38,438 nt of DNA from positions 1-38,438 of the IMG/VR virus record IMGVR_UViG_3300045988_048834, one strand, 5' to 3'. The translations under genes and the position numbers were made by a program. The notes below the pieces were generated by a model. It made no database searches. It was not told the origin of the DNA and saw nothing but the letters and a program-made list of their open reading frames with translations. Positions 1,196 to 35,815 of the stretch are shown here, piece by piece; within the stretch, counting starts at the first letter, position 1, and each line of letters begins with the position of its first letter. Source of the stretch: a virus.

Positions 1196-1535
1196 TTACG
1201 ATCTCCTCCAATCTTGTAAGACGCGTGTCCAAACTGGACATATCTACCGCGGGGGCGGTCTGGTGTGGGGCAATGTCAAACGGCTGCACCGTCTTGTACC
1301 CTGCCCCATCGGTCTGGCACAGCCACACGATGGGTGCTGTGTCGTCCATCACAATGGCGTTGCTGTTAGGGGCCATTTGCAGCGCCCGCGCCCCCGGCTC
1401 GCCGTTGACGTGGATGATCTCATACCGCTGCGCGGCCTGCTGCATTGTGCCGCCCGGGTTGTAGGGCGTCTGGCCGTACCCGCCGGGCTGGCCATACATG
1501 GCCGGATAGGCCATAGGGCTGTTATAATAGGGCAT
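1131..1535 (-). CDS. Hypothetical protein with a Pro/Gly/Tyr/Gln-rich N-terminus (accessory operon)
   Basis: I prefer the internal ATG at 1535 because of its RBS (GAGAGGTGA); the ORF track extends to 1643. The N-terminus reads MPYYNSPMAYPAMYGQPGGYGQTPYNPGG and is followed by a globular-looking domain. Confidence 0.55.
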   Translation of the reverse strand: MPYYNSPMAYPAMYGQPGGYGQTPYNPGGTMQQAAQRYEIIHVNGEPGARALQMAPNSNAIVMDDTAPIVWLCQTDGAGYKTVQPFDIAPHQTAPAVDMSSLDTRLTRLEEIVNGKQPADAVPAAPGKRPQAAK

Positions 1536-1643
1536 CGTGCTCACCTCTCTTTTATTATTATTGTAACGCAGTGCACATTTTTTCGTGCGCCACATCTGCG
1601 CCAACTTTACGCCAACTTTTTTATAAAAATCCCGCAATTTCAC

Positions 1644-1672
1644 TTGACATTACTACGCTAGCGTAGTATAAT
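1644..1672 (+). promoter_or_regulatory. Consensus sigma-70-type promoter with an 18-bp palindromic operator in the spacer
   Basis: TTGACA (1644-1649), a 17-nt spacer, then TATAAT (1667-1672). The spacer and -10 contain the perfect palindrome TACTACGCT/AGCGTAGTA (1651-1668). The promoter lies 45 nt upstream of CDS 1717. Confidence 0.7.
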
Positions 1673-1716
1673 ATAGACACAGTAAGAAACAACCACTTAC
1701 ACGAAAGGAAATAAAA

Positions 1717-2076
1717 ATGAGTAAGCTCGATTTTAGCGACACCATCTATAAACAGACCCACGTCCGCATTGACAACAACGCCCTCATCGACGACATCCGC
1801 AAGGCCATCAGCACCAGCGAAATGGAGAACGACGAGCGCCAGCGCATCACCGGCAAGGATGATGTCATGGAGCGCTGGGAGTACCTCGTCGACTTCCACC
1901 GGGACGAGATTCTCGACGACGACGGCGAACTTCTGCAAGTCGCTGACACCGTGAAGGTCATCGAGATCACCATTTACCCGCGAAGCCGTAACTCCGTCTT
2001 TGGCCGCGCCGGATTCCCTGTCAATGAGGACATCTTCGTTGAACTTCCCGCCGACGCCGACAGCTTTGAAATCTAA
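1717..2076 (+). CDS. Highly acidic small protein of unknown function (first gene of the plus-strand cassette)
   Basis: 119-aa ORF with RBS AAAGGAA. I count about 28 D/E against about 14 K/R. It is transcribed opposite to all neighbouring genes. Confidence 0.7.
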   Translation: MSKLDFSDTIYKQTHVRIDNNALIDDIRKAISTSEMENDERQRITGKDDVMERWEYLVDFHRDEILDDDGELLQVADTVKVIEITIYPRSRNSVFGRAGFPVNEDIFVELPADADSFEI

Positions 2077-2089
2077 AAGGAGGCCATCT

Positions 2090-2578
2090 ATGGAAATTTC
2101 CCTAAAGGAATACGCCGCCCGGCACAGCCGCGCCGCGGCGACTGTCCGCCAAAAGGCCATCCGTGGCGGATTTAAGACCGCTCGCCGCGTTGGCCGTGAC
2201 TGGCTCATTGATGAAGATGAACCCTACATTGACGAGCGCTTTGCCATGCCTTCCACGCCGCCGGACCTGTGGCTTTTGACAAACGGCAGGCACAGCCGCA
2301 CCATCAGCGACGCCGGTGCCGTCAAAATCGGCAGTGACGAATTCTCCGCTCTTATTCCCACCGGCGCGGGTGACGGCGAATCCGCCTACTGTATCTATAC
2401 GCGGGCAGAGCTGGACGCCGTCGGCATCAACACCGCCGACCTTCACTACTTCACCCTTGTTTCCGGCAGCTTCAACATCTACGACTACGACTGCGGGTGC
2501 GCCGTATCGGAGACTGTAGAAGGAGTCTTCAGCGTTTTCTATGCGGACGGCATCGTCTTTTTCGTAAAAGCCGAATAA
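2090..2578 (+). CDS. HTH (excisionase/MerR-like) DNA-binding protein with an unknown C-terminal domain (second gene of the cassette)
   Basis: The ATG at 2090 has RBS AGGAGG; the ORF-track start at 2000 overlaps the upstream gene. The N-terminus ISLKEYAARHSRAAATVRQKAIRGGFKTARRVGRDWLI resembles winged-HTH Xis-type domains. Confidence 0.65.
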   Translation: MEISLKEYAARHSRAAATVRQKAIRGGFKTARRVGRDWLIDEDEPYIDERFAMPSTPPDLWLLTNGRHSRTISDAGAVKIGSDEFSALIPTGAGDGESAYCIYTRAELDAVGINTADLHYFTLVSGSFNIYDYDCGCAVSETVEGVFSVFYADGIVFFVKAE

Positions 2579-2582
2579 AATA

Positions 2583-2632
2583 AAAAAGCGCCCCTCCCGT
2601 GTCCACCATGGACACAAGGAGGGGCGCTTTTT
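2583..2632. terminator. Bidirectional rho-independent terminator with the GTGTCC-N5-GGACAC palindrome at its tip
   Basis: AAAAAGCGCCCCTCC (2583-2597) pairs with GGAGGGGCGCTTTTT (2618-2632). The inner stem is GTGTCCA-cca-TGGACAC. It lies between convergent CDS 2090..2578 (+) and 2631..2828 (-). Confidence 0.8.
2599..2615. repeat. GTGTCC-N5-GGACAC palindrome, perfect copy
   Basis: gtgtcc accat ggacac; forms the tip of the terminator hairpin. Confidence 0.95.
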
Positions 2633-2828
2633 ATTCAGCCTTCAACTTCCCAACAATCGCCTTTACCCGTCTGTTCACCGTCCGCTCACTCAAATTCAGC
2701 TCTGCGGCAATTTCCGCATTCCCAAAGCCGCGCCGCTTCAAATCCAGCACCGCCTTTTCTTCATCCGTAAGCAGAAAGCACAATTTTTCATACGTCGCCG
2801 AATCCAAGCAAAAGCGGTATCGGCACAC
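2631..2828 (-). CDS. Small sigma-70 region-4 / LuxR-type HTH protein
   Basis: 65 aa. The stretch LTDEEKAVLDLKRRGFGNAEIAAELNLSERTVNRRVKAIVGKL is a typical region-4-like HTH. GTG start with a weak RBS. Confidence 0.6.
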   Translation of the reverse strand: MCRYRFCLDSATYEKLCFLLTDEEKAVLDLKRRGFGNAEIAAELNLSERTVNRRVKAIVGKLKAE

Positions 2829-2837
2829 ACGCGGGCC

Positions 2838-3149: not shown

Positions 3150-3464
3150 TTAATGAATCGGCAGCACCCGCGCCCGATTGTACAGTTCTGTGCCTGTTCC
3201 GTTACCGCCCAGCGCATGGTAGCTCTTGTACAGATATTCCAGATTTTTAAGGCCCGCCGTCTCGATCCAGCCCTGCGCGATATAAAACGTGCAGACCTGA
3301 TACAGCCGGTCGTGCAGAATTGCCAGCATCCCTGCCTTGATGGCGGCTCTTTCTTCTGCGTCGTCCTTGATTTTTTTCGCCAACCACCTATAAGCAACCA
3401 GCAGTCCAGCGGCCAGTACGCCAAAAGCCCACTCGACCCAGTATTTTATAATCCACTCCGGCAC
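3150..3464 (-). CDS. N-terminally membrane-anchored lysis-cassette protein (holin-associated, function uncertain)
   Basis: 104 aa with one N-terminal TM (WVEWAFGVLAAGLLVAYRWL). It lies directly downstream of the endolysin. Confidence 0.5.
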   Translation of the reverse strand: MPEWIIKYWVEWAFGVLAAGLLVAYRWLAKKIKDDAEERAAIKAGMLAILHDRLYQVCTFYIAQGWIETAGLKNLEYLYKSYHALGGNGTGTELYNRARVLPIH

Positions 3465-3465
3465 G

Positions 3466-4707
3466 TTAAACCTCCGCCCATTCAGATTTATACAGCCCAG
3501 CGTCCGTCAGGCCTCGTTCTTTGCACAGCAGGTAAATCGCATCTGCGTCCCCCTGCGAGACCGGCCCTACCGTGATGACCTGTAGCTTGTTTGCGGGATT
3601 GTCCGCTGCGGGCATGGCTTTGACCAGATGATTCAAATCAACCACGCCAGTGATGCCCGGCACGCCGCCTTGCCCGTATTGGTGGATGTGGCGCGGTAGC
3701 GTCTTGTCGTAGTTCGTGCGCGTGTCGGCCAGCCATCCGATGTAATCTTCACACAGGTAGGTGTAGTCGATGTTCGTGCCTGCGAAGGCCGTGAAGGTGT
3801 AGATGCCCGCCGTGAATCCGTGCGTCTTGGCCTTTTCGCAAAATGCCACAGCGATGGACGTGCGCTGGTCTTTCGTCAGGCGGTCTGCGCGTCCATCGTG
3901 CGTCTCGTGGCTCCACTCGGCATCGAAAAACAGCGGGTATCCAGACGGTGCAAGGCTTGCGCAGAAGTCTGCCTCCTCGCGGGCTTCTTCCACCGTGATG
4001 GCCTGCGAGAAGAAGTAAAAGCCGAACAGCTTTCCGCTTGCTTTCGCCCCTGCGAGGTTGGCATCGTACTGCTTGTCTTTCATCAGCTTTCCGCTGCCGT
4101 ATCCGCGATATCCGATGCGAACAATGGCACGGTAGGGAACCTTTGCCCAGTCAATAGCGCCCTGATGGTGAGACACATCAATCAGCACTTCCTCGCCGCT
4201 GGGCTGCACAGGCTGGCCACCGTATGTGCCCGCCTTGTTGGGTATGCCTGCATACGCAGTCGGGTCAAGGCCCTTGCTCGTGGCAGTGGCTCGCACTTCA
4301 AAGTGGCAGTGCGTCCATGTGCCTGCGGCGTTGCCGGTCTGTCCGACAACCGCCAGCACATCGTCGGTCTTTACTTTCTGCCCTACGCTTGCAAGCAACT
4401 TGGAGCAGTGGCAAAAATACAGGTAATTCACTGCGTCCGGGGTCTGGTTTGCGTCCAGCTTCACGCAGATATAATAGCCCCATTCCCATGTTTTGTTGCT
4501 CTTGTTCGTCACGATGCGGGCTGTAACAACGGTTCCTGCAATGCTCTTGCTGTTGTAGCCGGGCATGCGGATTTTGTCGTCATCCATACCGCAGACATCA
4601 ATGCCGCCGTGCCAAATCTTGCCGCCGCCGCGCGTGTAACCGTAGCAGCTGTACGGGTACTTCACGAGATTTCTCCCGCTAAAAATCATGGTATCACTTC
4701 CTATCAT
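3466..4707 (-). CDS. Bifunctional endolysin: M23 peptidase plus GH25 muramidase plus a small C-terminal domain
   Basis: M23 motifs: HGGIDV (HxxxD) and THCHFEV (HxH). GH25 signature: LIDVSHHQGAIDWAKV ... FFDAEWS. Confidence 0.85.
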   Translation of the reverse strand: MIGSDTMIFSGRNLVKYPYSCYGYTRGGGKIWHGGIDVCGMDDDKIRMPGYNSKSIAGTVVTARIVTNKSNKTWEWGYYICVKLDANQTPDAVNYLYFCHCSKLLASVGQKVKTDDVLAVVGQTGNAAGTWTHCHFEVRATATSKGLDPTAYAGIPNKAGTYGGQPVQPSGEEVLIDVSHHQGAIDWAKVPYRAIVRIGYRGYGSGKLMKDKQYDANLAGAKASGKLFGFYFFSQAITVEEAREEADFCASLAPSGYPLFFDAEWSHETHDGRADRLTKDQRTSIAVAFCEKAKTHGFTAGIYTFTAFAGTNIDYTYLCEDYIGWLADTRTNYDKTLPRHIHQYGQGGVPGITGVVDLNHLVKAMPAADNPANKLQVITVGPVSQGDADAIYLLCKERGLTDAGLYKSEWAEV

Positions 4708-4970
4708 TCGTTGATGGTATTTTCAGCGCCGTCAACCTCCGGCACATCCGGTGTCTCCGTAACCTCGTCTGCGCTCTCTCTCGCGTCCACTGCATCATAA
4801 TACGCCTGCGCCAGTGCTTCCACCTCGGCAATGTCCGCCTCATCCAGCAGGCCGTTGTCGAGGTGCGTGTACGCCTTGTCCAACCAGAACGCAACGTCGC
4901 GTCCTGCTGCAATCTCTCGCTTGATGCTACGCAGCGTTAAATCGTGCCGTGCTTTACTCTTGATAGCCAT
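4704..4970 (-). CDS. Small acidic phage protein between the fibre and the lysis genes
   Basis: 88-aa ORF. Its stop overlaps the endolysin start by 4 nt. No family recognised. Confidence 0.55.
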   Translation of the reverse strand: MAIKSKARHDLTLRSIKREIAAGRDVAFWLDKAYTHLDNGLLDEADIAEVEALAQAYYDAVDARESADEVTETPDVPEVDGAENTINE

Positions 4971-4992
4971 TTTATTACTCCTTTCAGGTTTG

Positions 4993-7323
4993 TCATGTTT
5001 GCGATGCTACCGCATCTTCCAAATCGGTGATTCGTTTAATGGGGTCTGCGCGTCCCATTACAGTCACGCTGTCGGCATCGGTCAGCACGGTGTTTACTCC
5101 CGCAATCGCGGGGATGGGCTGTGCTCCTGTCGCAGTGAAGGGCGTTTGGGTGATAGTCTCAAAAGCAATTTCAACATTGTTGGACGCTAGCCAATTCTTA
5201 ACATCCGTTCCAGTGGCTGCAACACTTCTGGGAAGCCGAAAAGCAATAAGATGATTGGCTGAACCTATCAGGTATGGTTTTGCTGTATGACCAATGTCCG
5301 AAACAAAATTAAAAATGTTTGACAAAGTCTTCGTATTGCGTGAAAATAATGTTGGATTATACAGATACCATGCAACGGCATCTTCTGATTGTACCCATCC
5401 TCCTTCATCCATGCCCTCGTAATAGTTATAGCTGCTAGGATTGTTTAAAAGCTGCCACGTCTCCTGCCCCTTGCCAGTCACCGCATCCACCTCACCGCCA
5501 TACACGGTTTCAGGCAAGGTCATTGTGTTGGTGCTGCCCTGGTACTTGCTATATAGTGTAATTGTGGTTCCGACTTCAATCTTTGGGTAAAACGTTAGGC
5601 TGTTGCAAACAACTCCTTTAGCTATAGAAACTTCGACACGTGAATCAATCTTGCGTGTTGTGAGCTTAACATTCGTATTGCCATCTCCTACATCAGTAAA
5701 CCATTTTCCGCCGATATATAAGCCAATATAGTAGCTTTTTAGCGTCCCACCAGCTGGGCAACCACTTAATGTCATGGGTGTGTTCATAGGCAGTCTTTTA
5801 TCAAGACCATAGTTAAGCACATAAAATGTGTTCGCCGTTGCTGTGCCATCAACAGTTATGCTACCGTCCTGTTTCGCCGTGAAAACAAGTCCGTTTTTAT
5901 TATAAGAAGAAGTATAGTATGGGAATTTTACCAAGTTCTCCCCGCACCTTTCAACCGTCACGCTGTCACGTCCCTTGATGGGACGAATGTTTTCGGGGCT
6001 TGGTGTCCCGCTACCCTCCTGCACCGGTTCCCACTTCGCTTTCACGCCCAGCGGATAACCCGCTACGGGGTAGCACACAACAGGGTTGCTGATTTCTTCT
6101 ATCGGTGGGCAAATCATATCCACGATGTTCTTGCTGCTCCACGAATTCGCCCCAACGGCAGTATCATCAATTTCGGCCTTCTTTTCTTTCAGCTCGGCCA
6201 CCGCCGCCGTGTTCGCCGCCACGTTCTCCACGCTCTCGGCCAGCGTGTCCGCGCTCTGCTTGGCGTTTGCCTCGGATTTCGCCGCAGCCTCGGCGCTCTT
6301 AGCCGCCGTATCCCGGGCAGCCTCCGCGCCCTCCTGGGCGGTCTTGGCCTCGTCCCGGGCCTTCTCAGCAGCCGCCTGGGCATCTTGCGCACTCTTGGCC
6401 GCCGTTTGCGCCGCTCCCTGCGCATTTACGGCCTCCGCTTTGGCCGCCGCAGCAGCAGTCTGGGCGTCCTGGGCAGCCTTGGCCGCGGTCTCAGCAGCTG
6501 CCTTTCTTGCCGCTGCGTCGCTGGCGCTCTGACCTGCATCATTGGCGGCAGCTGTGGCCGTGTCCGCTGCCTGCTGTGCCGCCGTGGCATTCTCTCCGGC
6601 GAGGTTGGCCGCATTGTTGGCCGCTGCCTTGGAATTCTCCGCCGCCTGGGCAGCCTGCGCAGCCTCCGTCGCCAGCGTATCCGCTGCGCTCTTACTGGCC
6701 GCCGCGGCAGCAGCCGCATTTTCCGCCGCCTGCTGCGCGGCAATCGCTTCATCCCGGGCCGACTCTGCCGCTTCTTTGGCAGCCCGCGCGGCCTCTGCAT
6801 ACGGCCCGGCCTTGGCAGCATCCGCCGCAGCATTCTCCGCCGCCTGCTGTGCCTTTTCGGCATCGGCCTGGGCCTTGTCTGCGTTGGCTTTAGCAGCCGC
6901 CGCATCCTCCGCTGCTGCCTTTGCGTCCGCCTTGGCCTGCAAAGCAGCTTCCAGCACCTGCGCCGCCAGCTCGGGCGTCGGCTCTGCATCCGCGCCGCCG
7001 TATACGCCCGCTTGCTCAAGGATAAGATACTCCACGTTGCAACTCGCCCGCTGCACGCCGGAGGCCAGCCCGGCCAGCACAAGCACGCCATCCTTGGCCT
7101 TCTTCGTCACCTCGGGCGGCACGTCCATAGCATCCCCATCCAGCAGGGCCACGCGCAGCGGCTCTTCCCGCCCGGGGATGTGCCACGTTGCGGTGAGATT
7201 TAGTCCGTCCCACCCGGCCCCGCGCTCAATCTTGATACTCTCCGTGCCAAAGCTGGAATTAGTCCCCAGCACCAGCTTTCGCGGGGTGGGGAAGTAGTTG
7301 TCCAGTCTCAAAGTATGTACCAT
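4993..7323 (-). CDS. Tail fibre / receptor-binding protein with a long Ala-rich coiled-coil
   Basis: The ATG at 7323 has RBS GGGAGGTG; the ORF track extends to 7392. About 270 aa are an Ala/Gln/Lys/Asp repeat (roughly 6120-6950). The C-terminal globular domain is encoded by low-GC DNA. Confidence 0.75.
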   Translation of the reverse strand: MVHTLRLDNYFPTPRKLVLGTNSSFGTESIKIERGAGWDGLNLTATWHIPGREEPLRVALLDGDAMDVPPEVTKKAKDGVLVLAGLASGVQRASCNVEYLILEQAGVYGGADAEPTPELAAQVLEAALQAKADAKAAAEDAAAAKANADKAQADAEKAQQAAENAAADAAKAGPYAEAARAAKEAAESARDEAIAAQQAAENAAAAAAASKSAADTLATEAAQAAQAAENSKAAANNAANLAGENATAAQQAADTATAAANDAGQSASDAAARKAAAETAAKAAQDAQTAAAAAKAEAVNAQGAAQTAAKSAQDAQAAAEKARDEAKTAQEGAEAARDTAAKSAEAAAKSEANAKQSADTLAESVENVAANTAAVAELKEKKAEIDDTAVGANSWSSKNIVDMICPPIEEISNPVVCYPVAGYPLGVKAKWEPVQEGSGTPSPENIRPIKGRDSVTVERCGENLVKFPYYTSSYNKNGLVFTAKQDGSITVDGTATANTFYVLNYGLDKRLPMNTPMTLSGCPAGGTLKSYYIGLYIGGKWFTDVGDGNTNVKLTTRKIDSRVEVSIAKGVVCNSLTFYPKIEVGTTITLYSKYQGSTNTMTLPETVYGGEVDAVTGKGQETWQLLNNPSSYNYYEGMDEGGWVQSEDAVAWYLYNPTLFSRNTKTLSNIFNFVSDIGHTAKPYLIGSANHLIAFRLPRSVAATGTDVKNWLASNNVEIAFETITQTPFTATGAQPIPAIAGVNTVLTDADSVTVMGRADPIKRITDLEDAVASQT

Positions 7324-7340
7324 TATGCACCTCCCCAAAA

Positions 7341-8648
7341 TCAGTAATAAATCAGCGTGATCTGGCGGTTCACGGTGCCGTTTCCGCTCCATTCCATAGT
7401 GATGGTGTTCCCGCTGATGCGCAGGAGCCCGATCTCCGAGCTATCCCCACTTTGCGCGATGTCGCGGATGCCGACCAGCGTGCCGCCCGTAAAAGTGTAA
7501 CTCCAGGGACCCCCGCCTGTGGCCATGGTGATTGTCACCGTTTTCAACGCCTTTGCGCTCACTCTACCGCCGCCGTCGTGCTTTCCGTCCGGCACCGTCA
7601 CCGACTCACCCGGTGCAATCGTCGCGCCCCAGTCCCCGCGCCGCGGCACATTACCGGTGCGCAGCGTTTTGTCCTTCGCGTAAAACGTAGAGTTCGCCAG
7701 CACATCCGCTTCCGTGGCGGTGGCCTGTGCCAGCTTTCCAGAGCTCAATCCACCGCCGCCGTTAAAATCCAGCCGCGTGCCGTCAAAGGTAAACAGCACC
7801 CAGCGTCCGGTCACAACGCAGTCCCCGTCCGCCGCATCCGCGCCGCAATACGCAGGCACGGCCACACCGTTGACTGTCCACGTGTCGCCCGCACTCCACG
7901 CGGCGGGGACTTTGAATCGTCCCACCGCGCCATCGCCCGTCAGCGCATACACGCTGCCGCTCTTGCTGCACTCATATTCCTGCACGCAGATATTCACCCC
8001 GTCATCGCCGGGGTCGTAGACGCTGCGCAGCATGGCGGCGGTGCCGGTCTCTACCTCGCCGATCTCCTCCCGCAGCCGTGCGATCATTGCCGTCAGTTGG
8101 GCAAAAAATCCGCTTGTGTCTAGCTCCCCCACGGTCTGGGCCACCGCGCCGCAGCGGGTATCATCCAGCCGGGTGTCCTCCACATCCCGCTGGGTGATCA
8201 CACCCGCCCCCGCGCTCACCAGCACGTTGGCAATGCCCAGCTCCCAGGTGGTATTGTTGCGCGTCAGCGCCGGGGCCACCGGGCTCACCGCTGCCACACC
8301 GCTTACCACGGCCAGCGAAATGTCGCGCTTGTCTAGCGACAGATCCAGCCGCAGCACTACGCTGTCGATGCGGTTCAGGCTGGCGTCCGCCGCGGCAATA
8401 GGCAGCGTCTGCACGGTATCCTCCAGGCAGAAGGCCCCCTGCACCTGCGCCATACCGGGCTTCACCTGCACGTTCATTCCCGTGCCGGTGGCCGTTACGG
8501 CAAAGCTCGTGGACGGCTTATAAAACACGCCGTCGTCCCAGTACGCCTTATAGAATCGGCGCAGAAAAGCCGAATCTACGGCCCTGTCGTAAATTGGCAA
8601 GCTTTGCGCGTCGTAGGTGACGCGGCTCGTAAATGGATAAGAAATCAT
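7341..8648 (-). CDS. Tail / baseplate structural protein
   Basis: 435-aa ORF between the Gp37-like gene and the fibre gene. Its start overlaps the upstream stop. It contains a NRIDSVVLRLD-type motif that I have seen in siphophage distal tail proteins. Confidence 0.6.
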   Translation of the reverse strand: MISYPFTSRVTYDAQSLPIYDRAVDSAFLRRFYKAYWDDGVFYKPSTSFAVTATGTGMNVQVKPGMAQVQGAFCLEDTVQTLPIAAADASLNRIDSVVLRLDLSLDKRDISLAVVSGVAAVSPVAPALTRNNTTWELGIANVLVSAGAGVITQRDVEDTRLDDTRCGAVAQTVGELDTSGFFAQLTAMIARLREEIGEVETGTAAMLRSVYDPGDDGVNICVQEYECSKSGSVYALTGDGAVGRFKVPAAWSAGDTWTVNGVAVPAYCGADAADGDCVVTGRWVLFTFDGTRLDFNGGGGLSSGKLAQATATEADVLANSTFYAKDKTLRTGNVPRRGDWGATIAPGESVTVPDGKHDGGGRVSAKALKTVTITMATGGGPWSYTFTGGTLVGIRDIAQSGDSSEIGLLRISGNTITMEWSGNGTVNRQITLIYY

Positions 8649-9697
8649 CAGTGTATCAGCCTCGCTTTGTCCAGCATCGTCAGCTTTTTATCGCCCATCT
8701 CGATGCTGATCTTGTGATTATTTTGTTTAAAAACTTCCCGCACCGTCACGATGCGCGCCTCCAGCGCCAGGCCGATGTCTTCCACAATTACATCCACCTT
8801 GTCGCCCAGGTCCCAGTCCTCCAGGTACTTGTAGCCGCCCGCGCTGGCCTCCACATCCACGTTGTTGATGATCTGGTAGTCCAGCAGGGCCTCATAGCCC
8901 TCCTGCTGCAGTCCGGCAATGTAGTCCTCGCGGCTCTGCTCTTTTTCATCCCACCGGCTGGCGCGGCTATCCTTGTACAGCATCTTCTTATAGCCGCCGC
9001 CGGACAGGTCAGCCACTGCCGTAATGCGGTTCTCGGCCTTGTCCTGTCCGGCGATGATGGCATAATTCTTGTAGTTGCTTTTGTCCTGACTGGCCTCGGC
9101 AGAGATCAGATTTCCAAAGCTGTCCGCAAACGTCACAAACGGGTTAGCCGTCTGGCCCTGGGTGCGGTCCGTGCCCTGCCATACGCCGCAATAAATTTTA
9201 TTCGCGTTGTAGTCGTAGCGGCACCGCAGGCTGCAGGCCACTGTCTGCAGCTGCTTGTAGGCCACATTCCCCAACTCGCCGCCGGTCTCCTGCCACACCG
9301 CTGTGTCCAGGGTGGACACAGCCGGGGCGTCCAGCACCTCCAGCAGCGGTATGTCCCCCTTGTACTGCTGGATCATTGCCGTCACCGCCTCCGGGATCGT
9401 GCCGCCGCTGGCGTAGTACGTCGGCCAGAGGACCTTATCCCACAATAAGCGCTCCAAAAAGTAGCCGCTTATCTGGATAAAGCGCCCCTTGATGTTCTCG
9501 GTGCGTTCCACCTTATGGATAACACCCATCTCCGGGCGCTCCGGCGTGTACAGGTAAGCCATGCGCGGGTCGTAGTCCCCCGCCGCCACCTGCACGCTGT
9601 ACTGGCCCGCCGTGTAGTACTCACGTGTCCACTGCAGATTGATGTAGGGCAGGTAGCCCACCGGCTCAAAGTCGTCATCCAGCGCCAGCAGCTCCAT
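8648..9697 (-). CDS. Siphovirus Gp37-like distal tail protein
   Basis: The N-terminus MELLALDDDFEPVGYLPYINLQWTREYYTAGQYSVQV matches the characteristic start of the Sipho_Gp37 family. The gene follows Dit. Confidence 0.65.
   Translation of the reverse strand: MELLALDDDFEPVGYLPYINLQWTREYYTAGQYSVQVAAGDYDPRMAYLYTPERPEMGVIHKVERTENIKGRFIQISGYFLERLLWDKVLWPTYYASGGTIPEAVTAMIQQYKGDIPLLEVLDAPAVSTLDTAVWQETGGELGNVAYKQLQTVACSLRCRYDYNANKIYCGVWQGTDRTQGQTANPFVTFADSFGNLISAEASQDKSNYKNYAIIAGQDKAENRITAVADLSGGGYKKMLYKDSRASRWDEKEQSREDYIAGLQQEGYEALLDYQIINNVDVEASAGGYKYLEDWDLGDKVDVIVEDIGLALEARIVTVREVFKQNNHKISIEMGDKKLTMLDKARLIH
9303..9319. repeat. GTGTCC-N5-GGACAC palindrome, perfect copy
   Basis: gtgtcc agggt ggacac; inside CDS 8648..9697, where it encodes VSTLDT. 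Confidence 0.95.
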
Positions 9698-9700
9698 GGC

Positions 9701-23376: not shown

Positions 23377-23801
23377 TTTAGCGCGTTCACAATTTTATCG
23401 TGCTTTCTGCGCACCTGTCGGCTGCAATAGCCCATGGCCCTGCCGACCTCCCGCCAGGTCTGCCCCAGCAGGTAGCGGCGGCGCATCAGCTCGTAGTCAT
23501 CGGCTGCCGGTATCGTCTCCAGCACGGTGGCCACCTCCCGGCGTACCGCGCTGCATACGCTCAGCTGCTCCTCCACCCTGGCCCGCGCCGCATCGATGCG
23601 CTCCACCGCCCGCGGCAGGGCCTGGCCGTCGCTGGCCCCGCCGGGCATTCCGCTCAGGTTGGCCGTTACGCGGCACGCATCAGCGCGCAGCTCCCGGACC
23701 TCTTCCTCATAGAGGCGCTCCAACCGACAGGCGTCCAGGTAGCGGTACAGCCATTGCACCCGCAGGGCCCGTACCCGCCGGGTCTCCTCCTCACAGCTCA
23801 C
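23355..23801 (-). CDS. Sigma-70 region-4-like phage transcription regulator (RinA/ArpU/DUF1492-type candidate)
   Basis: 148 aa. The C-terminal RRRYLLGQTWREVGRAMGYCSRQVRRKHDKIV resembles a region-4 HTH. The gene sits directly upstream of the putative late promoter. Confidence 0.6.
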   Translation of the reverse strand: MSCEEETRRVRALRVQWLYRYLDACRLERLYEEEVRELRADACRVTANLSGMPGGASDGQALPRAVERIDAARARVEEQLSVCSAVRREVATVLETIPAADDYELMRRRYLLGQTWREVGRAMGYCSRQVRRKHDKIVNALKMSTDVP

Positions 23802-25987: not shown

Positions 25988-26008
25988 CTTGTAAATCCCC
26001 CTGTAAAA

Positions 26009-27370: not shown

Positions 27371-28134
27371 TCTTCCCACGCTCCCCACAATTTGGTGATG
27401 TCGCCGTCGGGGTCAAGTACCGGCGTGGGCGGCGGCGGGCTGTGCGGTGTCTGCCGCGCCGCCGGGGCGGCCACACCGTCCGGTTCATCCTCCCACCGGC
27501 GCTGATTTAGCCAGGTGGCCGGGTTGGGGATGTAGCCGCGCAGCCATGTGTCACTCTGGCGCTGTGTCTCAATGGCCCGCAGCATCCCGTCCAGCAGGGC
27601 AGCGTCCGGGCGGATGCGCTCAAAGCTGCGTTCAGCGGCCCCCTTGCCGACCTTGCGCGGGTAAGCCGCCCAGAACCGGTCAAACCCTCGTGCGCACGCA
27701 CGCGTTGTGTTGTTATTACTTGTATTATTATTCTTGTATTGTTTTCCCGCAGTTTTCTGCGGGGGTGGGGCGCAGTTTTCTGCGGGGGTATCCCCGCAAT
27801 TTTCTGCGGGGGTGGCGCTTAAATCTGCGGGGGTCTGCCGGACGTCCCGCAAGCCGAAAAGCGGGGTCATGCGGCGCTCGCACCGACCCTGTCCGGCACC
27901 GCCGAACACTTCCACCGTGATGTACTCACAGTCGGCCAAGTTTTTTATCCATCCCTGAACAGTCCGTTCCCCGGCTCCGTACAGCTCGATAAAATACCGG
28001 TTCGACGCGTAGCAGTATCCGGTCTGGTCGGCCAGCGCCGTGATCTCGCTGTATAAAATCCGCTCCATCGGTTTCAGTCGCGTGTCGTACCGCACGGCGG
28101 CGGGCAGTATCGCAAAAAAAGCAGGTTTGTCCAT
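27367..28134 (-). CDS. Replisome organizer / DnaD-like replication initiator
   Basis: An N-terminal winged-HTH pattern (FAILPAAVRYDTRLKPMERILYSEITALADQTGYCYASNRYF) and a C-terminal FDRFWAAYPRKVGK motif. Iterons lie inside the gene. Confidence 0.7.
   Translation of the reverse strand: MDKPAFFAILPAAVRYDTRLKPMERILYSEITALADQTGYCYASNRYFIELYGAGERTVQGWIKNLADCEYITVEVFGGAGQGRCERRMTPLFGLRDVRQTPADLSATPAENCGDTPAENCAPPPQKTAGKQYKNNNTSNNNTTRACARGFDRFWAAYPRKVGKGAAERSFERIRPDAALLDGMLRAIETQRQSDTWLRGYIPNPATWLNQRRWEDEPDGVAAPAARQTPHSPPPPTPVLDPDGDITKLWGAWEE
27704..27833. other. Candidate replication origin: AT-rich tract plus four 18-bp iterons inside the initiator gene
   Basis: CGCAGTTTTCTGCGGGGG occurs at 27748-27765 and 27771-27788, CGCAATTTTCTGCGGGGG at 27795-27812, and a degenerate copy at 27816-27833. 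The adjacent AT-rich stretch at 27704-27747 stands out in otherwise GC-rich DNA. Confidence 0.65.
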
Positions 28135-28686: not shown

Positions 28687-28752
28687 TCACTTTGTCAGCC
28701 ATGCGTAAATCAGAAGGCTGATAACAATAATTGCCACTGCGACCCAAGTCAT
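28687..28752 (-). CDS. Possible 21-aa hydrophobic micropeptide (MTWVAVAIIVISLLIYAWLTK)
   Basis: Below the ORF-track size cutoff. Its ATG overlaps the upstream stop (TGATG) and its stop lies 10 nt before the ssb ATG. Confidence 0.35.
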   Translation of the reverse strand: MTWVAVAIIVISLLIYAWLTK

Positions 28753-29495
28753 CAGATCATCACCACCACATTGCCGCTCTCGATCAGGTCGGCCAGCTTC
28801 TCGCCCAGATAGGCGGCAATGTTGCGCTTTGCCTCCAGCTTCCACGCGCCGCCGTCAGCCTCGTACAGCGCCGGGCGGCCTTCTTTGTTAAGGCGCAGCA
28901 GGAAGTCGCTGGCGGGCTGCTCGACCTCAAGGAAAGTGCGGTAGGGCTGCAGATGGACGATGGGCTGCACCGTCTGCTGCTCCTTCAGCACCGCGCCGGT
29001 CTTGACGCTGACCTCCTGACTGATCCCGTTGTCCACACTGGACACGCCCTGATTCACGTCGATGCGGCTCAGCAGCGCCAGCAGATAGTCACGGTCAGTG
29101 GTGACGGCGTACAGACTCTGCAGCTCCACGACGGCCTTCTCCTTGGTCATGCTCTGGTTTGTGGTAATGTCCGGCACGTCACTCACGGCCTCATACAGCG
29201 GCAGGCGGCTGTAGATCGCGTAGTCGCGGCCCGTGTAGGTGCTGTCCACTACGACCCGCCGGGCGCTGTCCACACGCACATACAGCAGCGGTGCCTGGGT
29301 GACGCCCTCGGTGCGGATCAGCTTGACCAGCGCCTCCAGAGTATCCACCGAGTACCGGTCCGGGAGTTCAACCTCCGGCTTGACCTCGTGCAGGTAGGTG
29401 GAGCAGAACTGATACCCGCTGCGCGTTTCCAGGGTGAAGGGGGTCGCCAGCTCCACAATGCGGTCAATAGCGTCTTTCAAAAAACTGTTTTCCAT
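28752..29495 (-). CDS. Early-region protein of unknown function
   Basis: 247-aa ORF in the recombination/replication operon. No motif recognised. Confidence 0.6.
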   Translation of the reverse strand: MENSFLKDAIDRIVELATPFTLETRSGYQFCSTYLHEVKPEVELPDRYSVDTLEALVKLIRTEGVTQAPLLYVRVDSARRVVVDSTYTGRDYAIYSRLPLYEAVSDVPDITTNQSMTKEKAVVELQSLYAVTTDRDYLLALLSRIDVNQGVSSVDNGISQEVSVKTGAVLKEQQTVQPIVHLQPYRTFLEVEQPASDFLLRLNKEGRPALYEADGGAWKLEAKRNIAAYLGEKLADLIESGNVVVMI

Positions 29496-31323: not shown

Positions 31324-32013
31324 TCACTGTGGGCCAATATAGACCCCATCGTCATCATACTGGGCGGGGTCGGCGTGCGGACCGTCCCAACCGTAGAGTA
31401 CGCCCCCCACCATGGCCGCCGCCTGACGGGCGTCCACGCTGATCTGCTCGTTGGCCTTGCTCACTATCATGTCAGGCCGCACGCCGAACATGGCGTGTTC
31501 GCCCCGGAAAATCCGTACCGGCAGCCCGGTCTTGGGCGCTATCGCGTAGCAGTACGCGGGCAGCCCTTTCTTGTCAATGTTCATCTTGATTTCTCCCTTT
31601 TTTCGTATTTGCGCCGGGGTCGCCCGGCTGTGCGGCAGTCGGCGCGCCGCGGTGGGGTTCTTTTCCTTCCAGCTCGTGCAGCGTAACGTGATCGCCGCGT
31701 TAGATATCTTCCCCGCGTAGCCCATCAGCTGCTTTACAACGTCCATGTCCACGCCGCCGTAGAACATCAGCACGGCCTCGTGCATCGTATTCTCGTCGGG
31801 CATGGTGTAGGTGTTGCCGCGATGGTTCCCGCCGCGGCCTCGCAGCTTGCTGGTGTAGGCCGCTTTGAGGGCGGCTTCGCTCTCAAAGCCCAGCGCGGCC
31901 AGCAGTGCGTCGTCGCCCACGTCCAAACACTGGGCACATTTGTGCAACGTGTCGACCAGATACTTACAGCCGCGCAGCCGCCCCTGCACCCAGGCGATAT
32001 CATCGGGCGTCAT
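31324..32013 (-). CDS. Early protein of unknown function (possible nested in-frame second start at about 31584)
   Basis: The ATG at 32013 has RBS GGAAGGAGG; the ORF track extends to 32142. An internal MNIDKKGLP start is preceded by GGGAGA. Confidence 0.55.
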   Translation of the reverse strand: MTPDDIAWVQGRLRGCKYLVDTLHKCAQCLDVGDDALLAALGFESEAALKAAYTSKLRGRGGNHRGNTYTMPDENTMHEAVLMFYGGVDMDVVKQLMGYAGKISNAAITLRCTSWKEKNPTAARRLPHSRATPAQIRKKGEIKMNIDKKGLPAYCYAIAPKTGLPVRIFRGEHAMFGVRPDMIVSKANEQISVDARQAAAMVGGVLYGWDGPHADPAQYDDDGVYIGPQ

Positions 32014-32031: not shown

Positions 32032-32048
32032 GTGTCCACGTTGGACAC
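32032..32048. repeat. GTGTCC-N5-GGACAC palindrome, perfect copy
   Basis: gtgtcc acgtt ggacac; fills the gap between the stop at 32051 and the RBS of CDS 31324..32013. Confidence 0.95.
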
Positions 32049-32050: not shown

Positions 32051-32377
32051 TTAAATTCTGCCGGGGTCGGCCCGGCTGATACGGCGGCGTGTTGGGGCGG
32101 CGGGCTGGCCCGCGTAGGCCGGGCCGGTGTGCCGGGTGTCAAACTCCGTGATGCCCGAAAGCGTCACCAGGTGGATGCGCGGCGTCGGGTTGACGGTCTC
32201 GCCAAACTCCCCGGCCCGCATCCAGCGGGTAATGGTGTCGTCGCTGACGCCGTACCGCTCGCACAGATCCTGCACGGTGTACAGCTCCTTGCGCTGCGGC
32301 GCGATCCTGCCCGCCACCCGGGCGGCCAGTTCTTCCAGCAGGGCGTCAAGGACAGGTTGTAATGCGGTGTTGTCCAT
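32051..32377 (-). CDS. Xis/MerR-type HTH DNA-binding protein
   Basis: YTVQDLCERYGVSDDTITRWMRAGEFGE is a typical excisionase-type HTH. Confidence 0.6.
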   Translation of the reverse strand: MDNTALQPVLDALLEELAARVAGRIAPQRKELYTVQDLCERYGVSDDTITRWMRAGEFGETVNPTPRIHLVTLSGITEFDTRHTGPAYAGQPAAPTRRRISRADPGRI

Positions 32378-32951: not shown

Positions 32952-33329
32952 TTGAACGAACGTATTAAATTGGTGCGTAAAAATGAAGGCCTGACCCTGG
33001 AAAAGTTCGGGGAGCGTATCGGAATTACTGCCCCCTCTTGCAGCAATATTGAGAATGGAAAAAAGAACCCATCTGACCAAACCATCCGCTCAATCTGCCG
33101 CGAGTTCAATGTCTCCGAGACTTGGCTGCGCACCGGAGAGGGGGAAATGTACAACCGCCTTGATGATGACGCCGAGTTTAACCTTATTATGGAGTCCATC
33201 GGTGCAAACGACCCGGTCATCGTTCGCATCCTGCGTGCCTATTGGCACCTGCCGGAGGAGGACAAGGCCGCCGTCCGCAGGTTGGTGGACAACGTTGTGG
33301 AGGAGTACAAAAAAAACAGCCCGGAGTAA
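32952..33329 (+). CDS. CI-like XRE-family repressor
   Basis: LNERIKLVRKNEGLTLEKFGERIGITAPSCSNIENGKKNPSDQTIRSICREFNVSETWLRTGEG. I prefer the TTG at 32952 after RBS GGAGGTG; the ORF track starts at 32928. Confidence 0.8.
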   Translation: MNERIKLVRKNEGLTLEKFGERIGITAPSCSNIENGKKNPSDQTIRSICREFNVSETWLRTGEGEMYNRLDDDAEFNLIMESIGANDPVIVRILRAYWHLPEEDKAAVRRLVDNVVEEYKKNSPE

Positions 33330-33465: not shown

Positions 33466-33550
33466 CTGTTGTCCCCCTTTCGTTATCTTCATTATAAACA
33501 ACTGTTAGTTGTTGTTCAGCTCGCATTTTAAACAAAATTGTTGTTAAAAA

Positions 33551-33579
33551 TTGTGGATTCCCGAACTTTACACTATAAT
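33551..33579 (+). promoter_or_regulatory. Promoter for the exonuclease-lipoprotein(-integrase) block
   Basis: TTGTGG (33551-33556), a 17-nt spacer, then TATAAT (33574-33579). Small palindromes lie upstream (AACAACT-gtt-AGTTGTT). Confidence 0.5.
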
Positions 33580-33629
33580 ACACCGCCGCGGGCGCAAACT
33601 CTGTCGCAACCGCAGCGGTAAACGAGGAT

Positions 33630-35072
33630 GTGATCAAAATCGCCAACAAAAAGAAAAGTACCGGCAATAACAACAGCGATTTCGCCAACGGTTGCATGTT
33701 GATCATCGCCGCCATCGCGCTTTTGCCTTACTTCTTATCATTTGTCCTCAGCAAATTTGTTTGGACGTCGAAAAGATCCAAGCTGCCAAAATTCCTGCGC
33801 GGGGTGCTGATCGTTTTACTTTGGGTCATCATGCTCCTGTGGGGCCTAGCGGCCTGGGCGCTGCAAACCAACGCCAAAGACACCGGCACGACGTCCAACG
33901 CGATGATTTTATTCTGGGGCATCACCGTCTGCACCCAGGCGCTTGCCTGCCTTTTCATGTACGAGCGCGAGCCGGAAGAAAAGCCCGCGCCTCCTGTTGA
34001 GCCGGAAGTTCCGGACACCTCTGCTGTCGCCGACACGCTGGCCGCTACCCTGACCCCGCGCATCGTTTTTGATGGCTACGAGTACACCCCGGCACCAACT
34101 CCCGCTCCGGCAGCACCTCCAAAGCCGCGCGGCCTGCCGCCGTTCTGTACCCGCGCCCCCGCCGAGCTGGCCGACCTCAGGAAGCTCCACGACTACGTTG
34201 TCGTGGACACCGAGACCACCGGCTTAAATCACCTCACGGATGAGATGATCGAGATTGCCATCATCACCGTGGTCGGTGACCAAACTGTAGAAGAATACAG
34301 CACGTTGATTCATCCGATAGTTCCCGTCTCGGCACAGGCCTCCGCGGTCAACGGCCTGACGGAGGCCGACCTCATCGAGGCCCCGCATCTGGCCGATGTC
34401 CTGCCGGAGATTCGCCGCCGGCTGGACGGCAAAACCATCATCGGCCACAACGTCACCTTCGATTTGGGCTTTATTTCCGATGCGCTGGCCGCACCGGAGC
34501 GCCCCGCCGATCTGTGCTACATTGACACCATGAGTCTCTCCCGCCAGTGCGTACCGGCCAAGACGCACAAGCTCCAGGCGCTGGCCGCTCAACTGGGCCT
34601 TGACCCCGGCCAGGCGCACCGCGCACTGGGCGACGCCCGCACGACCCTGCAGCTATATCAGTACTGTGTGCACAAGCTGGATGCCGATGCCGCCGAGGAG
34701 CGCCGCTTGCGCGCCGAACGCCGCCGCATCAAGCAGGCCGCTCACGATGCCGAGTTCAGCTGGTCGCCGCTCAATAATAAGAATTTTGCTTTTTCCGGCG
34801 ACTTCCTGACAGATCGCGAACGTCTGGAGGGCCTCGTTCTCACCGTTGGCGCGAATTTGCGCACCGAGGTAAACACGAAAACGGACTACCTCGTTACCGG
34901 AGATCTTACCCACCTGCCCGACTGGGCTCTGGCCCGCAAATCCGGCAAGGCCGACAGCCTCAAAAACGCCGGGCAGAATTTAACAAGGCTCACCGAGGCC
35001 GAATACATCGCCCTTATCCAATCCACTACAGCCCTGAAGCCCGCCGCCGAGACCGGGGACTTCAACCAATAA
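33630..35072 (+). CDS. Membrane-anchored DEDDh (DnaQ-like) 3'-5' exonuclease with a C-terminal BRCT domain
   Basis: About three N-terminal hydrophobic helices and a Pro-rich linker. Exo I VVVDTETTGL, Exo II GHNVTFDLGF, Exo III HRALGDARTT. BRCT-like FAFSGDFLTDRERLEGLVLTVGANLRTEVNTKTDYLVTGD. The start (GTG 33630) is uncertain. Confidence 0.75.
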   Translation: MIKIANKKKSTGNNNSDFANGCMLIIAAIALLPYFLSFVLSKFVWTSKRSKLPKFLRGVLIVLLWVIMLLWGLAAWALQTNAKDTGTTSNAMILFWGITVCTQALACLFMYEREPEEKPAPPVEPEVPDTSAVADTLAATLTPRIVFDGYEYTPAPTPAPAAPPKPRGLPPFCTRAPAELADLRKLHDYVVVDTETTGLNHLTDEMIEIAIITVVGDQTVEEYSTLIHPIVPVSAQASAVNGLTEADLIEAPHLADVLPEIRRRLDGKTIIGHNVTFDLGFISDALAAPERPADLCYIDTMSLSRQCVPAKTHKLQALAAQLGLDPGQAHRALGDARTTLQLYQYCVHKLDADAAEERRLRAERRRIKQAAHDAEFSWSPLNNKNFAFSGDFLTDRERLEGLVLTVGANLRTEVNTKTDYLVTGDLTHLPDWALARKSGKADSLKNAGQNLTRLTEAEYIALIQSTTALKPAAETGDFNQ

Positions 35073-35097
35073 AAGCATTTGCAGAGGAGGCAACCTC

Positions 35098-35754
35098 ATG
35101 AAGCGCCTGGTCGCTCTCACCGCTGCCGCTGTCCTGGCCCTGAGCCTGGCCGCGTGCAGCACCGCCCCCAGCACGGCGGACACCCCCGCCGAGACCCCCG
35201 CACCGACTGCCGCGCCCACCACGGAGCCAGACATCTCCCTGCAGGAAGCTGCCGACGCCATCAGCACCGCCGAGCAGATCGAGGTGGAGGACAACCTCTT
35301 TGATGTCACCCTCACCCTGCCCGCCGACTACGCCAGCGACATTACCGCCGAGGAGATCGCGCAGCAGGTGGCCGACGGCAAGGTCCACACCGGCGTGCTC
35401 AACGACGACGGCAGCGTAACGTACACCATGAGCAAGGCCCAGCACGCCGCCCTGCTGGAGAGCATCGCCGCCGAGCTGCGCAGCACGCTGGACGACATGA
35501 TCGGTTCCACCGACTACCCCAACCTCACCCGCATTGAGACGAACGACGATTTCACCGCCTTCACCGTCTACACCACCACTCAGCCCGGCGCGGTGGGGCT
35601 TTCTGACGAAATGTCCGTGCTGATCTACTACACCTGCGGCAAAATGTACGGCATCGTCAGCGGCCAGGAGCCGGGCAACATCCACGTGGACATCCTCAAC
35701 GCCGAATCCGGCGAGCTTGTTTCCTCGCACGATTCCAAAGATTTCAATCAATAA
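35098..35754 (+). CDS. Lipoprotein of unknown function (lysogeny-block moron)
   Basis: Signal peptide MKRLVALTAAAVLALSLAAC with the lipobox L-A-A-C. RBS GAGGAGG. Confidence 0.75.
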   Translation: MKRLVALTAAAVLALSLAACSTAPSTADTPAETPAPTAAPTTEPDISLQEAADAISTAEQIEVEDNLFDVTLTLPADYASDITAEEIAQQVADGKVHTGVLNDDGSVTYTMSKAQHAALLESIAAELRSTLDDMIGSTDYPNLTRIETNDDFTAFTVYTTTQPGAVGLSDEMSVLIYYTCGKMYGIVSGQEPGNIHVDILNAESGELVSSHDSKDFNQ

Positions 35755-35798
35755 AAAAATCCCGCAGCGTTACCAGCACCGCGGGATAGAATATCAGC

Positions 35799-35815
35799 GT
35801 GTCCGAGGTGGACAC
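35799..35815. repeat. GTGTCC-N5-GGACAC palindrome, perfect copy
   Basis: gtgtcc gaggt ggacac; intergenic, 64 nt upstream of the int ATG. Confidence 0.95.

Follow-up and report, generated by a model that had tools for sequence, protein, structure and literature searches.

The 38,438-nucleotide viral sequence IMGVR_UViG_3300045988_048834, the whole of which we call the window, carries a short palindrome, GTGTCC-N5-GGACAC, in ten copies dispersed between positions 1225 and 35815, and the question raised by this arrangement is which molecule recognizes it. The window is a circular genome with 59.6% G+C. Its first and last 544 bp (1–544 and 37895–38438) are identical; this terminal duplication represents an assembly overlap, so that the sequence is a closed circle of 37,894 bp, the size already implied in an earlier note on this DNA. 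The open reading frame (ORF) at 276–917(−) is the complete form of the one that is cut at the right end of the window. The genome is that of a temperate HK97-like siphophage of gut Oscillospiraceae, with lytic genes nearly all on the minus strand. The earlier note had offered three candidate explanations for the palindrome: dispersed parS-like sites for the ParB-like protein of the phage, operators of one of its sigma-region-4-like proteins, and an RNA stem-loop acting at cistron junctions. From the comparisons described below we consider the first of these highly probable; that is, we propose that the ParB-family protein of the phage recognizes (Y)GTGTCCA-N3-TGGACAC(R) as its cognate parS-type site.

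Distribution of the palindrome and of parAB

A pattern search of the whole window found exact copies of GTGTCC-N5-GGACAC at 2599, 9303, 14242, 21734, 25218, 32032, and 35799, and three further copies with one mismatch at 1225, 27069, and 29029. In 100 shuffles that preserved dinucleotide composition, exact matches averaged 0.01 as compared with the 7 observed, and matches with one mismatch or fewer averaged 0.05, with no shuffle reaching the 10 observed. The seven perfect and three one-mismatch copies described in the earlier note, their coordinates, and its claim that they are not due to chance all held in these searches. When the tolerance was raised to three mismatches, just two additional weak matches appeared in the window, so that the site has sharp limits and does not grade into a set of degenerate forms. 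In eight of the ten, position 7 is A and position 11 is T, which extends the arms to 7 bp (GTGTCCA-N3-TGGACAC) around a variable 3-nt centre, again as previously described. At positions that were not used for selection, 155 unique copies had A at position 7 in 151 cases and T at position 11 in 148, with a preference for a pyrimidine (Y) at −1 and a purine (R) at +17; their flanks contained almost no information, and the element is thus a bare 17-bp site. We regard YGTGTCCA-N3-TGGACACR as a well-supported consensus for the putative site of the family, with GTGTCCAATGTGGACAC as one form of the proposed ParB target. On the 37.9-kb circle the gaps between copies range from 1.4 to 7.5 kb, giving intervals of about 3.8 kb, and the spacing is more regular than random (coefficient of variation 0.51 vs. 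0.88 expected, P = 0.026).

We scanned IMG/VR by pattern alone, using GTGTCCANNNTGGACAC, which gave at least 119 loci, each of them short (about ±5 kb), and compared these loci with all window proteins by tblastn. Among the 119 loci listed, a ParB homologue was present in at least 26 and a ParA homologue likewise in at least 26; no other window protein approached this frequency. A control palindrome of the same composition, CTGGTCANNNTGACCAG, yielded 120 listed loci, and ParA or ParB occurred in 0 of the 120. For the reverse test, loci were fetched by ParB similarity with a 20-sequence alignment; 79 of 80 such loci, whose ParBs were 43–91% identical to that of the window, carried the motif, with 306 copies (one mismatch or fewer) in 1.35 Mb. 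The co-occurrence of the palindrome with ParAB in both directions supports the interpretation as dispersed parS-like sites, as do the plasmids, the intersection of gene contents, and the controls lacking ParAB that are presented below. A target site for the phage methyltransferase or HNH protein was also considered and was rejected, since these proteins co-occurred with the motif in 3 and 7 of the 119 loci listed.

The earlier note had suggested a search for the palindrome at syntenic junctions of related genomes, and it was found there at the par locus. All close relatives have a copy at the parA/parB junction in which the arms are fixed and the spacer varies (AATGT, AAGAT, AATAT, AACGT). Even where ParB is just 23–30% identical to that of the window, the palindrome is kept, either in the parA–parB spacer or in the first codons of parB, where it reads V-S-K/N-L-D-T. 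The number of dispersed copies is lineage-specific; for example, in relatives L349–L351, which lie inside 72–131-kb contigs, a replication–parAB module is joined to a different capsid and scaffold module, and the copies lie in the early module only. A few loci with divergent ParBs have other symmetric forms. L310 lacks a canonical copy and has GTGTCAC-N3-GTGACAC twice (11518 and 12214) just downstream of parB, and L025 has GTGCCCA-N3-TGGGCAC twice (4380 and 12769) beside a divergent ParB; a C. (Clostridium) perfringens plasmid (L348, about position 3950) has a 16-bp version, GTGTCCCCTGGGACAC, in its parA–parB spacer. These three may be specificity variants. Recognition helices from the loci with variant palindromes (L310, L025) were compared, and the variants were too few for specificity residues to be assigned. 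Four loci have arrays of different short palindromes 2–4 kb upstream of parB: CGGACA-N4-TGTCCG, which has the half-sites of the motif in reversed order, occurs three times with a 23-bp period in L305 (357–420) and L307 (5956–6020); GGGAAAAAATTTCCC occurs four to five times in L309 (8095–8190); and GGGTGACAAAATGTCACCC occurs in pairs in L315 (5710–5805). These arrays may be origins or operators of other proteins.

Cultured phages and plasmids gave the same association at greater distance. Flavonifractor phage Cormatin (L331, ON453905) encodes ParA and a ParB with 24% identity to that of the window and has four perfect copies of the motif; its ParB homologue is annotated as a mere hypothetical protein and no integrase is annotated, so that this phage may be kept as a plasmid prophage. 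Clostridium phage Saumur, a myovirus of Enterocloster with 48% G+C, has a ParB that is 30% identical and three one-mismatch copies, one of them exactly between parA and parB. The homologues encoded by plasmids of C. perfringens and P. (Paraclostridium) sordellii are 32–35% identical over ParB residues 1–233 and 38% identical for ParA. In C. perfringens plasmid pBCNF5603 (L333; 36.7 kb, 25% G+C) the sole perfect copy (17710–17726) lies in the 58-bp parA–parB spacer; the chance of one perfect copy anywhere on this plasmid, estimated from base composition, is about 5e-5. The homologous C. perfringens plasmid systems have been termed parABS, and in pBCNF5603 a 117-bp stretch downstream of parB has been put forward as parS, with no binding test (PMC4459074); this stretch lies at 19038–19152 in L333, apart from the palindrome. 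The position of the palindrome in the parA–parB spacer, and not downstream of parB, raises the possibility that the centromere has been misassigned. On P. sordellii plasmid pCS1-6 the cassette is bracketed: about 110 bp ahead of parA there is a perfect copy, and parB is closely followed by a symmetric variant. Of all the window proteins, Saumur, Cormatin, and pBCNF5603 have just two in common, ParA and ParB.

Phages that lack ParAB served as controls. Faecalibacterium phage Aster (59% G+C, with an integrase) shares tail proteins and a 148-aa regulator with the window; it is without ParAB, and no copy of the palindrome was found in it at one mismatch or fewer. Three phages with homologous terminase, head, and tail modules (60–75% identity) and no ParAB within 10 kb had no copy in 65 kb, and the syntenic tail junction in these three also lacked the motif. 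The absence of the tail and packaging copies from homologues lacking ParAB suggests that such copies were gained under selection in a ParAB background.

These distributions also bear on the proposal, made in the earlier note for the sigma-region-4-like proteins, that the palindrome is an operator of another phage protein with a helix-turn-helix (HTH) motif. The phage does encode several small HTH proteins, among them a 65-aa protein resembling GerE and sigma region 4 (2631–2828, minus strand), a predicted sigma-like late regulator of 148 aa (23355–23801), and a cI-like repressor (32952–33329, plus strand); the half-site TGGACA resembles a −35 hexamer; and dispersed repressor sites exist in L5-type phages, so that as a target of the cI-like repressor the palindrome would be comparable to the stoperators of mycobacteriophage L5. 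Among the 119 loci fetched by the motif and listed, however, the GerE-like and cI-like proteins occurred in none and the 148-aa regulator in 4. Moreover, a protein 38% identical to the 148-aa regulator is encoded by Aster, in which no motif copy was found, and all three proteins are absent from Saumur, Cormatin, and pBCNF5603, which carry the site. We therefore regard an operator for one of these proteins as highly improbable. Still more remote, in our judgment, is the idea that the palindrome is a repeat of the host genome, of the repetitive extragenic palindromic (REP) or miniature inverted-repeat transposable element (MITE) kind, or the site of a host factor shared by the phage. A different REP-like repeat does occur in the related contig L311, where seven copies of a double hairpin of about 45 bp, cggcgctgcgcgccaCCTCCCCTTGCCAGGGGAGGcttt, lie within 10 kb (3288–9840); it is REP/MITE-like and unrelated to the palindrome. 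Against a host origin, the GC-rich palindrome adjoins parAB in hosts of different families with 25–62% GC, Aster, a ParAB-less phage of the same host clade, is without a copy, and the site is a bare 17 bp with no conserved flanks.

ParA and ParB of the phage

The window proteins were annotated by Pfam, PHROGs, and NCBIfam scans. The parA gene (25205–25987, minus strand) encodes a 260-aa ATPase of the ParA/Soj type with a deviant Walker A motif (KGGVGKS), which matched AAA_31 (4e-47) and CbiA/ParA in Pfam and phrog_164, a ParA-like partition protein (9e-63), in PHROGs. It lies immediately upstream of parB, with its stop codon 3 nt ahead of the parB ATG, and the phage thus has a complete parA–parB cassette; the earlier note had recognized the ParB-like gene correctly and missed the ATPase next to it. 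A promoter-like sequence, TTGAAA-18-TATAAT (26008–26037, minus strand; 11/12 matches, a consensus match only), is located 21 nt upstream of the parA start.

The parB gene (23798–25201, minus strand) encodes the proposed binder of the palindrome, a 467-aa protein of the ParB/Noc/KorB family. It scored 26.1 bits against Pfam ParB_N, just under the cut-off of 26.3, and matched a ParB-like partition protein in PHROGs (5e-41); a profile of its family matched Noc (1e-20), Spo0J/ParB (3e-19 to 7e-16), and, weakly, KorB (5e-05). The profile alignments to Noc and Helicobacter pylori ParB span the N-domain and the HTH, to about residue 231. Residues 1–215 contain the ParB N-domain and, directly after it, the HTH DNA-binding domain and form the conserved part of the family alignment. 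The arginine patch GxxRxxA, the CTP-binding motif of such N-domains, is present as GHRRWTA at residues 79–85 (GHRR 79–82); G79 and R82 did not vary, and R81 hardly varied, among 101 family members. An AlphaFold2 model built from the alignment of these 101 sequences had a confidence score (pLDDT) of 90.6, and its best structure matches, at probability 1.0, were Noc bound to its site NBS, KorB bound to its operator OB, and ParB complexes with parS or cytidine triphosphate (CTP). The 'ENLQR' box reads S/A-N-A-T-A-R, retaining N121 and R125, with Ser or Ala in place of the Glu across the whole family; CTP binding by this ParB is therefore plausible, and hydrolysis may differ. A canonical short C-terminal dimerization domain was not recognized: residues 226–467 (window 23798–24526) had no match in the PDB, and all matches cover the N-terminal half. 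This C-terminal half, about 240 aa, is variable within the family and is predicted with confidence to form two beta-rich modules separated by a 37-residue helix.

Placement of the ten copies

Six of the ten window copies lie in ORFs, all of them in the single frame GTG-TCC-xxx-xTG-GAC-AC, encoding (V/M)-S-x-(L/V)-D-(T/N), and four (2599, 14242, 32032, 35799) are strictly intergenic. In related loci, 177 nonredundant copies divided into 85 that are intergenic and 92 in ORFs, and 82 of the 92 use the same frame. Intergenic placement together with the use of a single reading frame fits a site that acts at the DNA level and is tolerated in gaps or in the least harmful frame; the sites appear to be selected as DNA, either in short intergenic gaps or in the frame that gives the innocuous V-S-x-L-D-T.

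Among the copies in ORFs, the one-mismatch copy at 1225–1241 (GTGTCCAAACTGGACAT) is inside ORF 1131–1643(−), where it reads M-S-S-L-D-T, and has the ATG of ORF 968–1195(−) 29 nt downstream of it. The perfect copy at 9303–9319 is inside the minor tail protein gene, 8648–9697(−), as V-S-T-L-D-T. That at 21734–21750, which is perfect with 6-bp arms (position 11 is C), closes the D12 methyltransferase gene, 21730–22929(−), as its final six codons (V-S-G-V-D-T-stop) and sits just upstream of the HNH gene. At 25218–25234 a perfect copy is contained in the 3′-terminal codons of parA (V-S-N-V-D-T-K-E-G-stop), with 3 nt separating it from the ribosome-binding site (RBS) of parB; this is the conserved parA/parB junction copy of the ParB family. 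The remaining two have one mismatch. One (27069–27085) is inside the DnaB-type helicase gene, 26009–27370(−), and reads V-S-N-L-D-N; the other (29029–29045) is inside gene 28752–29495(−) (phrog_1029), reads V-S-S-V-D-N, and has a one-mismatch sequence that recurs in most close relatives at a matching distance upstream of parB.

The four intergenic copies are all perfect. The copy at 2599–2615, between convergent genes 2090–2578(+) and 2631–2828(−), forms the tip of a long hairpin (−39 kcal/mol) with an A-run and a T-run at its sides, as expected from the description of it in the earlier note as the tip of a terminator. The copy at 14242–14258, between the tail-completion gene (14266–14766) and the major tail gene (13601–14188), is upstream of the major tail gene and is followed by a second strong hairpin and an RBS, and that at 32032–32048 lies between the stop codon of 32051–32377(−) and the RBS of 31324–32013(−). 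The copy at 35799–35815, in which position 7 is G, is 64 nt upstream of the integrase start and is flanked by a minus-strand promoter-like site (35862–35834) and a terminator (35787–35759). Thus, of the five perfect copies that the earlier note placed exactly between a stop codon and the next RBS or start, those at 14242, 32032, and 35799 are indeed intergenic, whereas the two it put upstream of parB (25218) and of HNH (21734) overlap the 3′ ends of the parA and D12 methyltransferase coding sequences. In promoter scans, promoter-like matches adjoined just the copies at 35799 and 2599, that is, 1–2 of the 10 copies are near promoter-like sequence. The arrangement at 35759–35862, in which the promoter-like TTGTCG-17-TGnTATAAT is followed on the minus strand by the copy (35815–35799) and then by the terminator (11-bp stem plus T7), is unique to this copy among the ten; it could specify a transcript of about 70 nt just upstream of and divergent from int, or could be a ParB-gated promoter.

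A rival reading is that the palindrome functions as RNA, as a hairpin with a 7-bp stem and a 3-nt loop in polycistronic transcripts that would govern processing, stability, or translation at cistron junctions. Several copies, in the window and in relatives, lie 1–6 nt upstream of a Shine-Dalgarno sequence, and folding is predicted, as any transcribed palindrome can fold. Complementarity of the flanks is slightly above chance, with 101 complementary pairs observed at −1/+17 vs. 74 expected; this excess is probably due to copies contained within longer hairpins, such as that at 2599. On the other hand, within the Y/R class the −1 and +17 positions did not covary (C-A 46 and T-G 38 vs. C-G 31 and T-A 36), as predicted for independent recognition of half-sites by a symmetric dimer, and the sequence of the arms, beyond their pairing, is fixed across ParBs of 23–30% identity. 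Half of the copies are inside ORFs and distant from start codons; plasmid copies adjoin parAB in unrelated gene contexts and lie outside genes; and homologous head and tail operons from phages without ParAB have no motif at the same junctions. An Rfam scan of the window at the gathering threshold found no match. An RNA element would leave the link to ParAB, the plasmid copies, and the motif-free junctions unexplained, and we consider it very unlikely.

The rest of the genome has the gene content of a temperate phage, with an early region in addition to the cI-like repressor. The replication genes encode a single-stranded DNA-binding protein, the DnaB helicase mentioned above, and a replication initiator (27367–28134) with internal iterons; within the initiator gene, at 27705–27816, short AT-rich repeats precede a set of three 23-bp direct repeats (CCCGCAGTTTTCTGCGGGGGTGG), and the whole looks like an iteron-type origin embedded in the gene. 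The late genes encode the D12 methyltransferase, HNH protein, small and large terminase subunits, portal, protease, capsid, tail proteins, endolysin, and holin. The D12 N6-adenine methyltransferase gene (21730–22929) contains 9.4 tandem copies of a 9-bp unit, TTGCAGCCT (22075–22159), which give an in-frame tripeptide repeat. A tyrosine integrase is encoded at 35879–36931 on the plus strand, and between it and the cI-like repressor, in the module on the lysogeny side, lies a plus-strand gene (33630–35072) for a 480-aa protein with an RNase_T/DnaQ-type 3′-5′ exonuclease domain and a BRCT domain.

Partition, regulation, and related systems

We propose that a ParB dimer would bind each palindrome through its two HTH domains, one on each half-site, the centres of the half-sites being separated by about 10 bp, roughly a turn of the helix. 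If it behaves like ParB, Noc, and KorB, the dimer would load at the site as a CTP-dependent clamp and spread over neighboring DNA, and ten sites 1.4–7.5 kb apart would let it cover most of the 37.9-kb genome. ParA could then position or segregate phage DNA while it is extrachromosomal, whether following infection or excision, in the course of replication, or as a plasmid-like carrier form, and an effect on transcription like that of KorB might be an additional or alternative output. The presence of a ParA partner and the centromere-like single copies on plasmids favor positioning or segregation, and we would give about even chances to partition or positioning, rather than regulation, as the main output of the phage ParAB.

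Several observations weigh against this interpretation, in part or as a whole. The assignment of the palindrome to ParB rests on co-occurrence and homology, and ParA co-occurs with the motif as tightly as ParB does; we chose ParB as the binder because its HTH is homologous to parS-binding domains and because ParA is a short form in which no DNA-binding extension was detected. The site is a 17-bp palindrome of the form 7-3-7, unlike canonical parS (16 bp), NBS (14 bp), and OB in length, so that the geometry of DNA binding must differ. The replacement of the ENLQR Glu by Ser or Ala and a C-terminal half unlike that of canonical ParB mean that CTP hydrolysis and clamp behavior may depart from the ParB/Noc/KorB analogy. 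Coverage of the whole genome is not universal, as some mosaic relatives have copies in the early module only. Finally, the phage has a tyrosine integrase and its close relatives are found inside contigs of 72–484 kb, and a classical role in plasmid partition is therefore not obviously needed. Such relatives include a 70%-identical ParB on a 128-kb Subdoligranulum contig and a 59%-identical ParB on a 215-kb contig. From the size of these contigs (72–484 kb) we infer that the phage integrates into its host; a look-up of the integrase for an integrated copy returned one 4-kb contig only.

For the same reason, the integrase and the long contigs of the relatives, gene regulation in the manner of RK2 KorB is a serious alternative or additional output. 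In this case the sites and the binder would be the same and just the downstream function would differ: ParB would load at dispersed operators, slide, and silence or insulate transcription units, and might in this way hold lytic genes silent in the lysogen or set the timing of late genes. The sites are dispersed genome-wide at intervals of about 3.8 kb, and RK2 likewise carries multiple OB sites; about half of the copies are intergenic at cistron boundaries; one copy is just downstream of a promoter-like site (35862–35834) and one is at the terminator that separates two convergent genes; the predicted late regulator and the packaging genes follow directly downstream of parAB; and a phage that integrates does not obviously require partition. 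Nevertheless, ParA is conserved with ParB in each lineage examined, as predicted for DNA positioning, and true plasmids carry the site once or twice beside parAB, like a centromere. In addition, promoter-like sequence is near just 1–2 of the 10 copies, and no KorA-like partner turned up, no search aimed at KorA having been made. We consider regulation as the main output possible, with perhaps one chance in a few.

RK2/IncP KorB and OB, with IncC as the ParA, form one of the closest parallels in kind. RK2 carries multiple OB sites, the core of which is TTTAGCSGCTAAA. As in the phage, a ParB-family protein with a CTP-binding-type N-domain and an HTH is paired with a ParA and has a short palindrome in many copies over a mobile replicon of tens of kilobases, and KorB–OB structures ranked near the top when the model of the phage ParB was compared with solved structures. 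The function of KorB and the 16-bp OB silencer sequence have been described (PMC11790492); the phage site differs from OB in sequence as well as in length (17 bp, 7-3-7). The sequence match to KorB (5e-05) is weak, far below those to Noc or Spo0J, and the phage replicon is an integrase-bearing siphophage and not a conjugative plasmid, with most copies away from promoters.

The phage-plasmid N15 is similar in another way, in being a temperate phage with a ParA/ParB-type pair, SopAB, and several dispersed palindromic centromere sites. The N15 sites are dispersed through its genome and not clustered, and an effect on late-gene expression has been reported. N15, in contrast to the window phage with its tyrosine integrase and ten sites, is a linear plasmid prophage without integrase and has about 4 sites. 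Its SopB recognizes F-like palindromic centromere repeats through its HTH (PMC2910045); it is a type Ia ParB and has no detectable sequence match to the phage ParB. The closest homologues of residues 1–215 in both sequence and structure are chromosomal ParB (Spo0J) and Noc of Bacillota, whose parS and NBS sites are also palindromes scattered in multiple copies over many kilobases, some inside genes. Bacillus subtilis has a parS within spo0J itself, and this parallels the copies within the 5′ codons of parB in distant relatives. The phage-encoded system differs from the chromosomal ones in that its site is neither canonical parS (TGTTNCACGTGNAACA) nor NBS, its ParB has about 240 C-terminal residues without a counterpart in Spo0J or Noc, and the ENLQR Glu is replaced.

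Among mobile elements, plasmids of the pCP13 family (pBCNF5603) and pCS1 carry true parAB homologues, and GTGTCC-N5-GGACAC likewise adjoins their parAB; they have one or two copies at the par locus only, whereas the phage has about 10 genome-wide. Temperate actinobacteriophages such as RedRock carry parABS cassettes, and L5 has a short protein-binding motif dispersed at gene junctions. In the actinobacteriophages, unlike here, parABS stands in place of the integrase, and short repeats clustered locally beside parB make up parS; the stoperators of L5 are asymmetric, oriented with respect to transcription, and bound by the immunity repressor, whereas our motif is palindromic and a cI-like protein was present in 0 of the 119 loci listed. 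The statement in the earlier note that no described phage system has this motif is correct for the sequence, as our literature search found no paper reporting the GTGTCC-N5-GGACAC palindrome and no relevant report on a phage ParB/parS, and is too broad for the kind of system, given RK2 KorB and N15 SopB. The kind of system, a ParB-family protein with multiple palindromic sites, is known; the sequence of the site was not found in the literature searched. The unusual features are the 7-3-7 geometry, the genome-wide amplification of sites in an integrating phage, and the large uncharacterized C-terminal region of ParB.

A more speculative reading, which we think is probably wrong as a whole yet worth stating, is that ParB in integrating gut phages is not a plasmid-style partition protein at all and is instead a genome-wide, CTP-gated clamp that coats the phage chromosome. 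Loading at about ten sites roughly 4 kb apart, and possibly impaired in hydrolysis through the replaced catalytic Glu, such a coat could silence or insulate transcription as KorB does, or could organize the genome as it replicates, position it, or shield it; the large novel C-terminal domain would then offer a new interface for a partner. If true, this would provide a function for many unexplained 'ParB-like' genes of temperate phages.

Genes for ParB-like proteins are common in temperate phages, and their targets and roles are mostly unknown. The interpretation that we favor, in which the palindrome is the site of ParB, would supply a site consensus for a large ParA/ParB family that extends from phages of gut Oscillospiraceae and Lachnospiraceae to plasmids of C. 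perfringens and P. sordellii, including pCS1-6, which carries the tcsL toxin gene. With this consensus ParB binding, CTP dependence, spreading, and incompatibility become directly testable, and the palindrome may serve as a simple sequence marker for the ParAB replicon family in metagenomes. It also raises the question why a phage with an integrase multiplies its centromere to about ten copies, some of them within coding sequence. Such a system is not surprising in principle, and it would offer a clean handle on the role of ParAB in temperate phages of major gut commensals.

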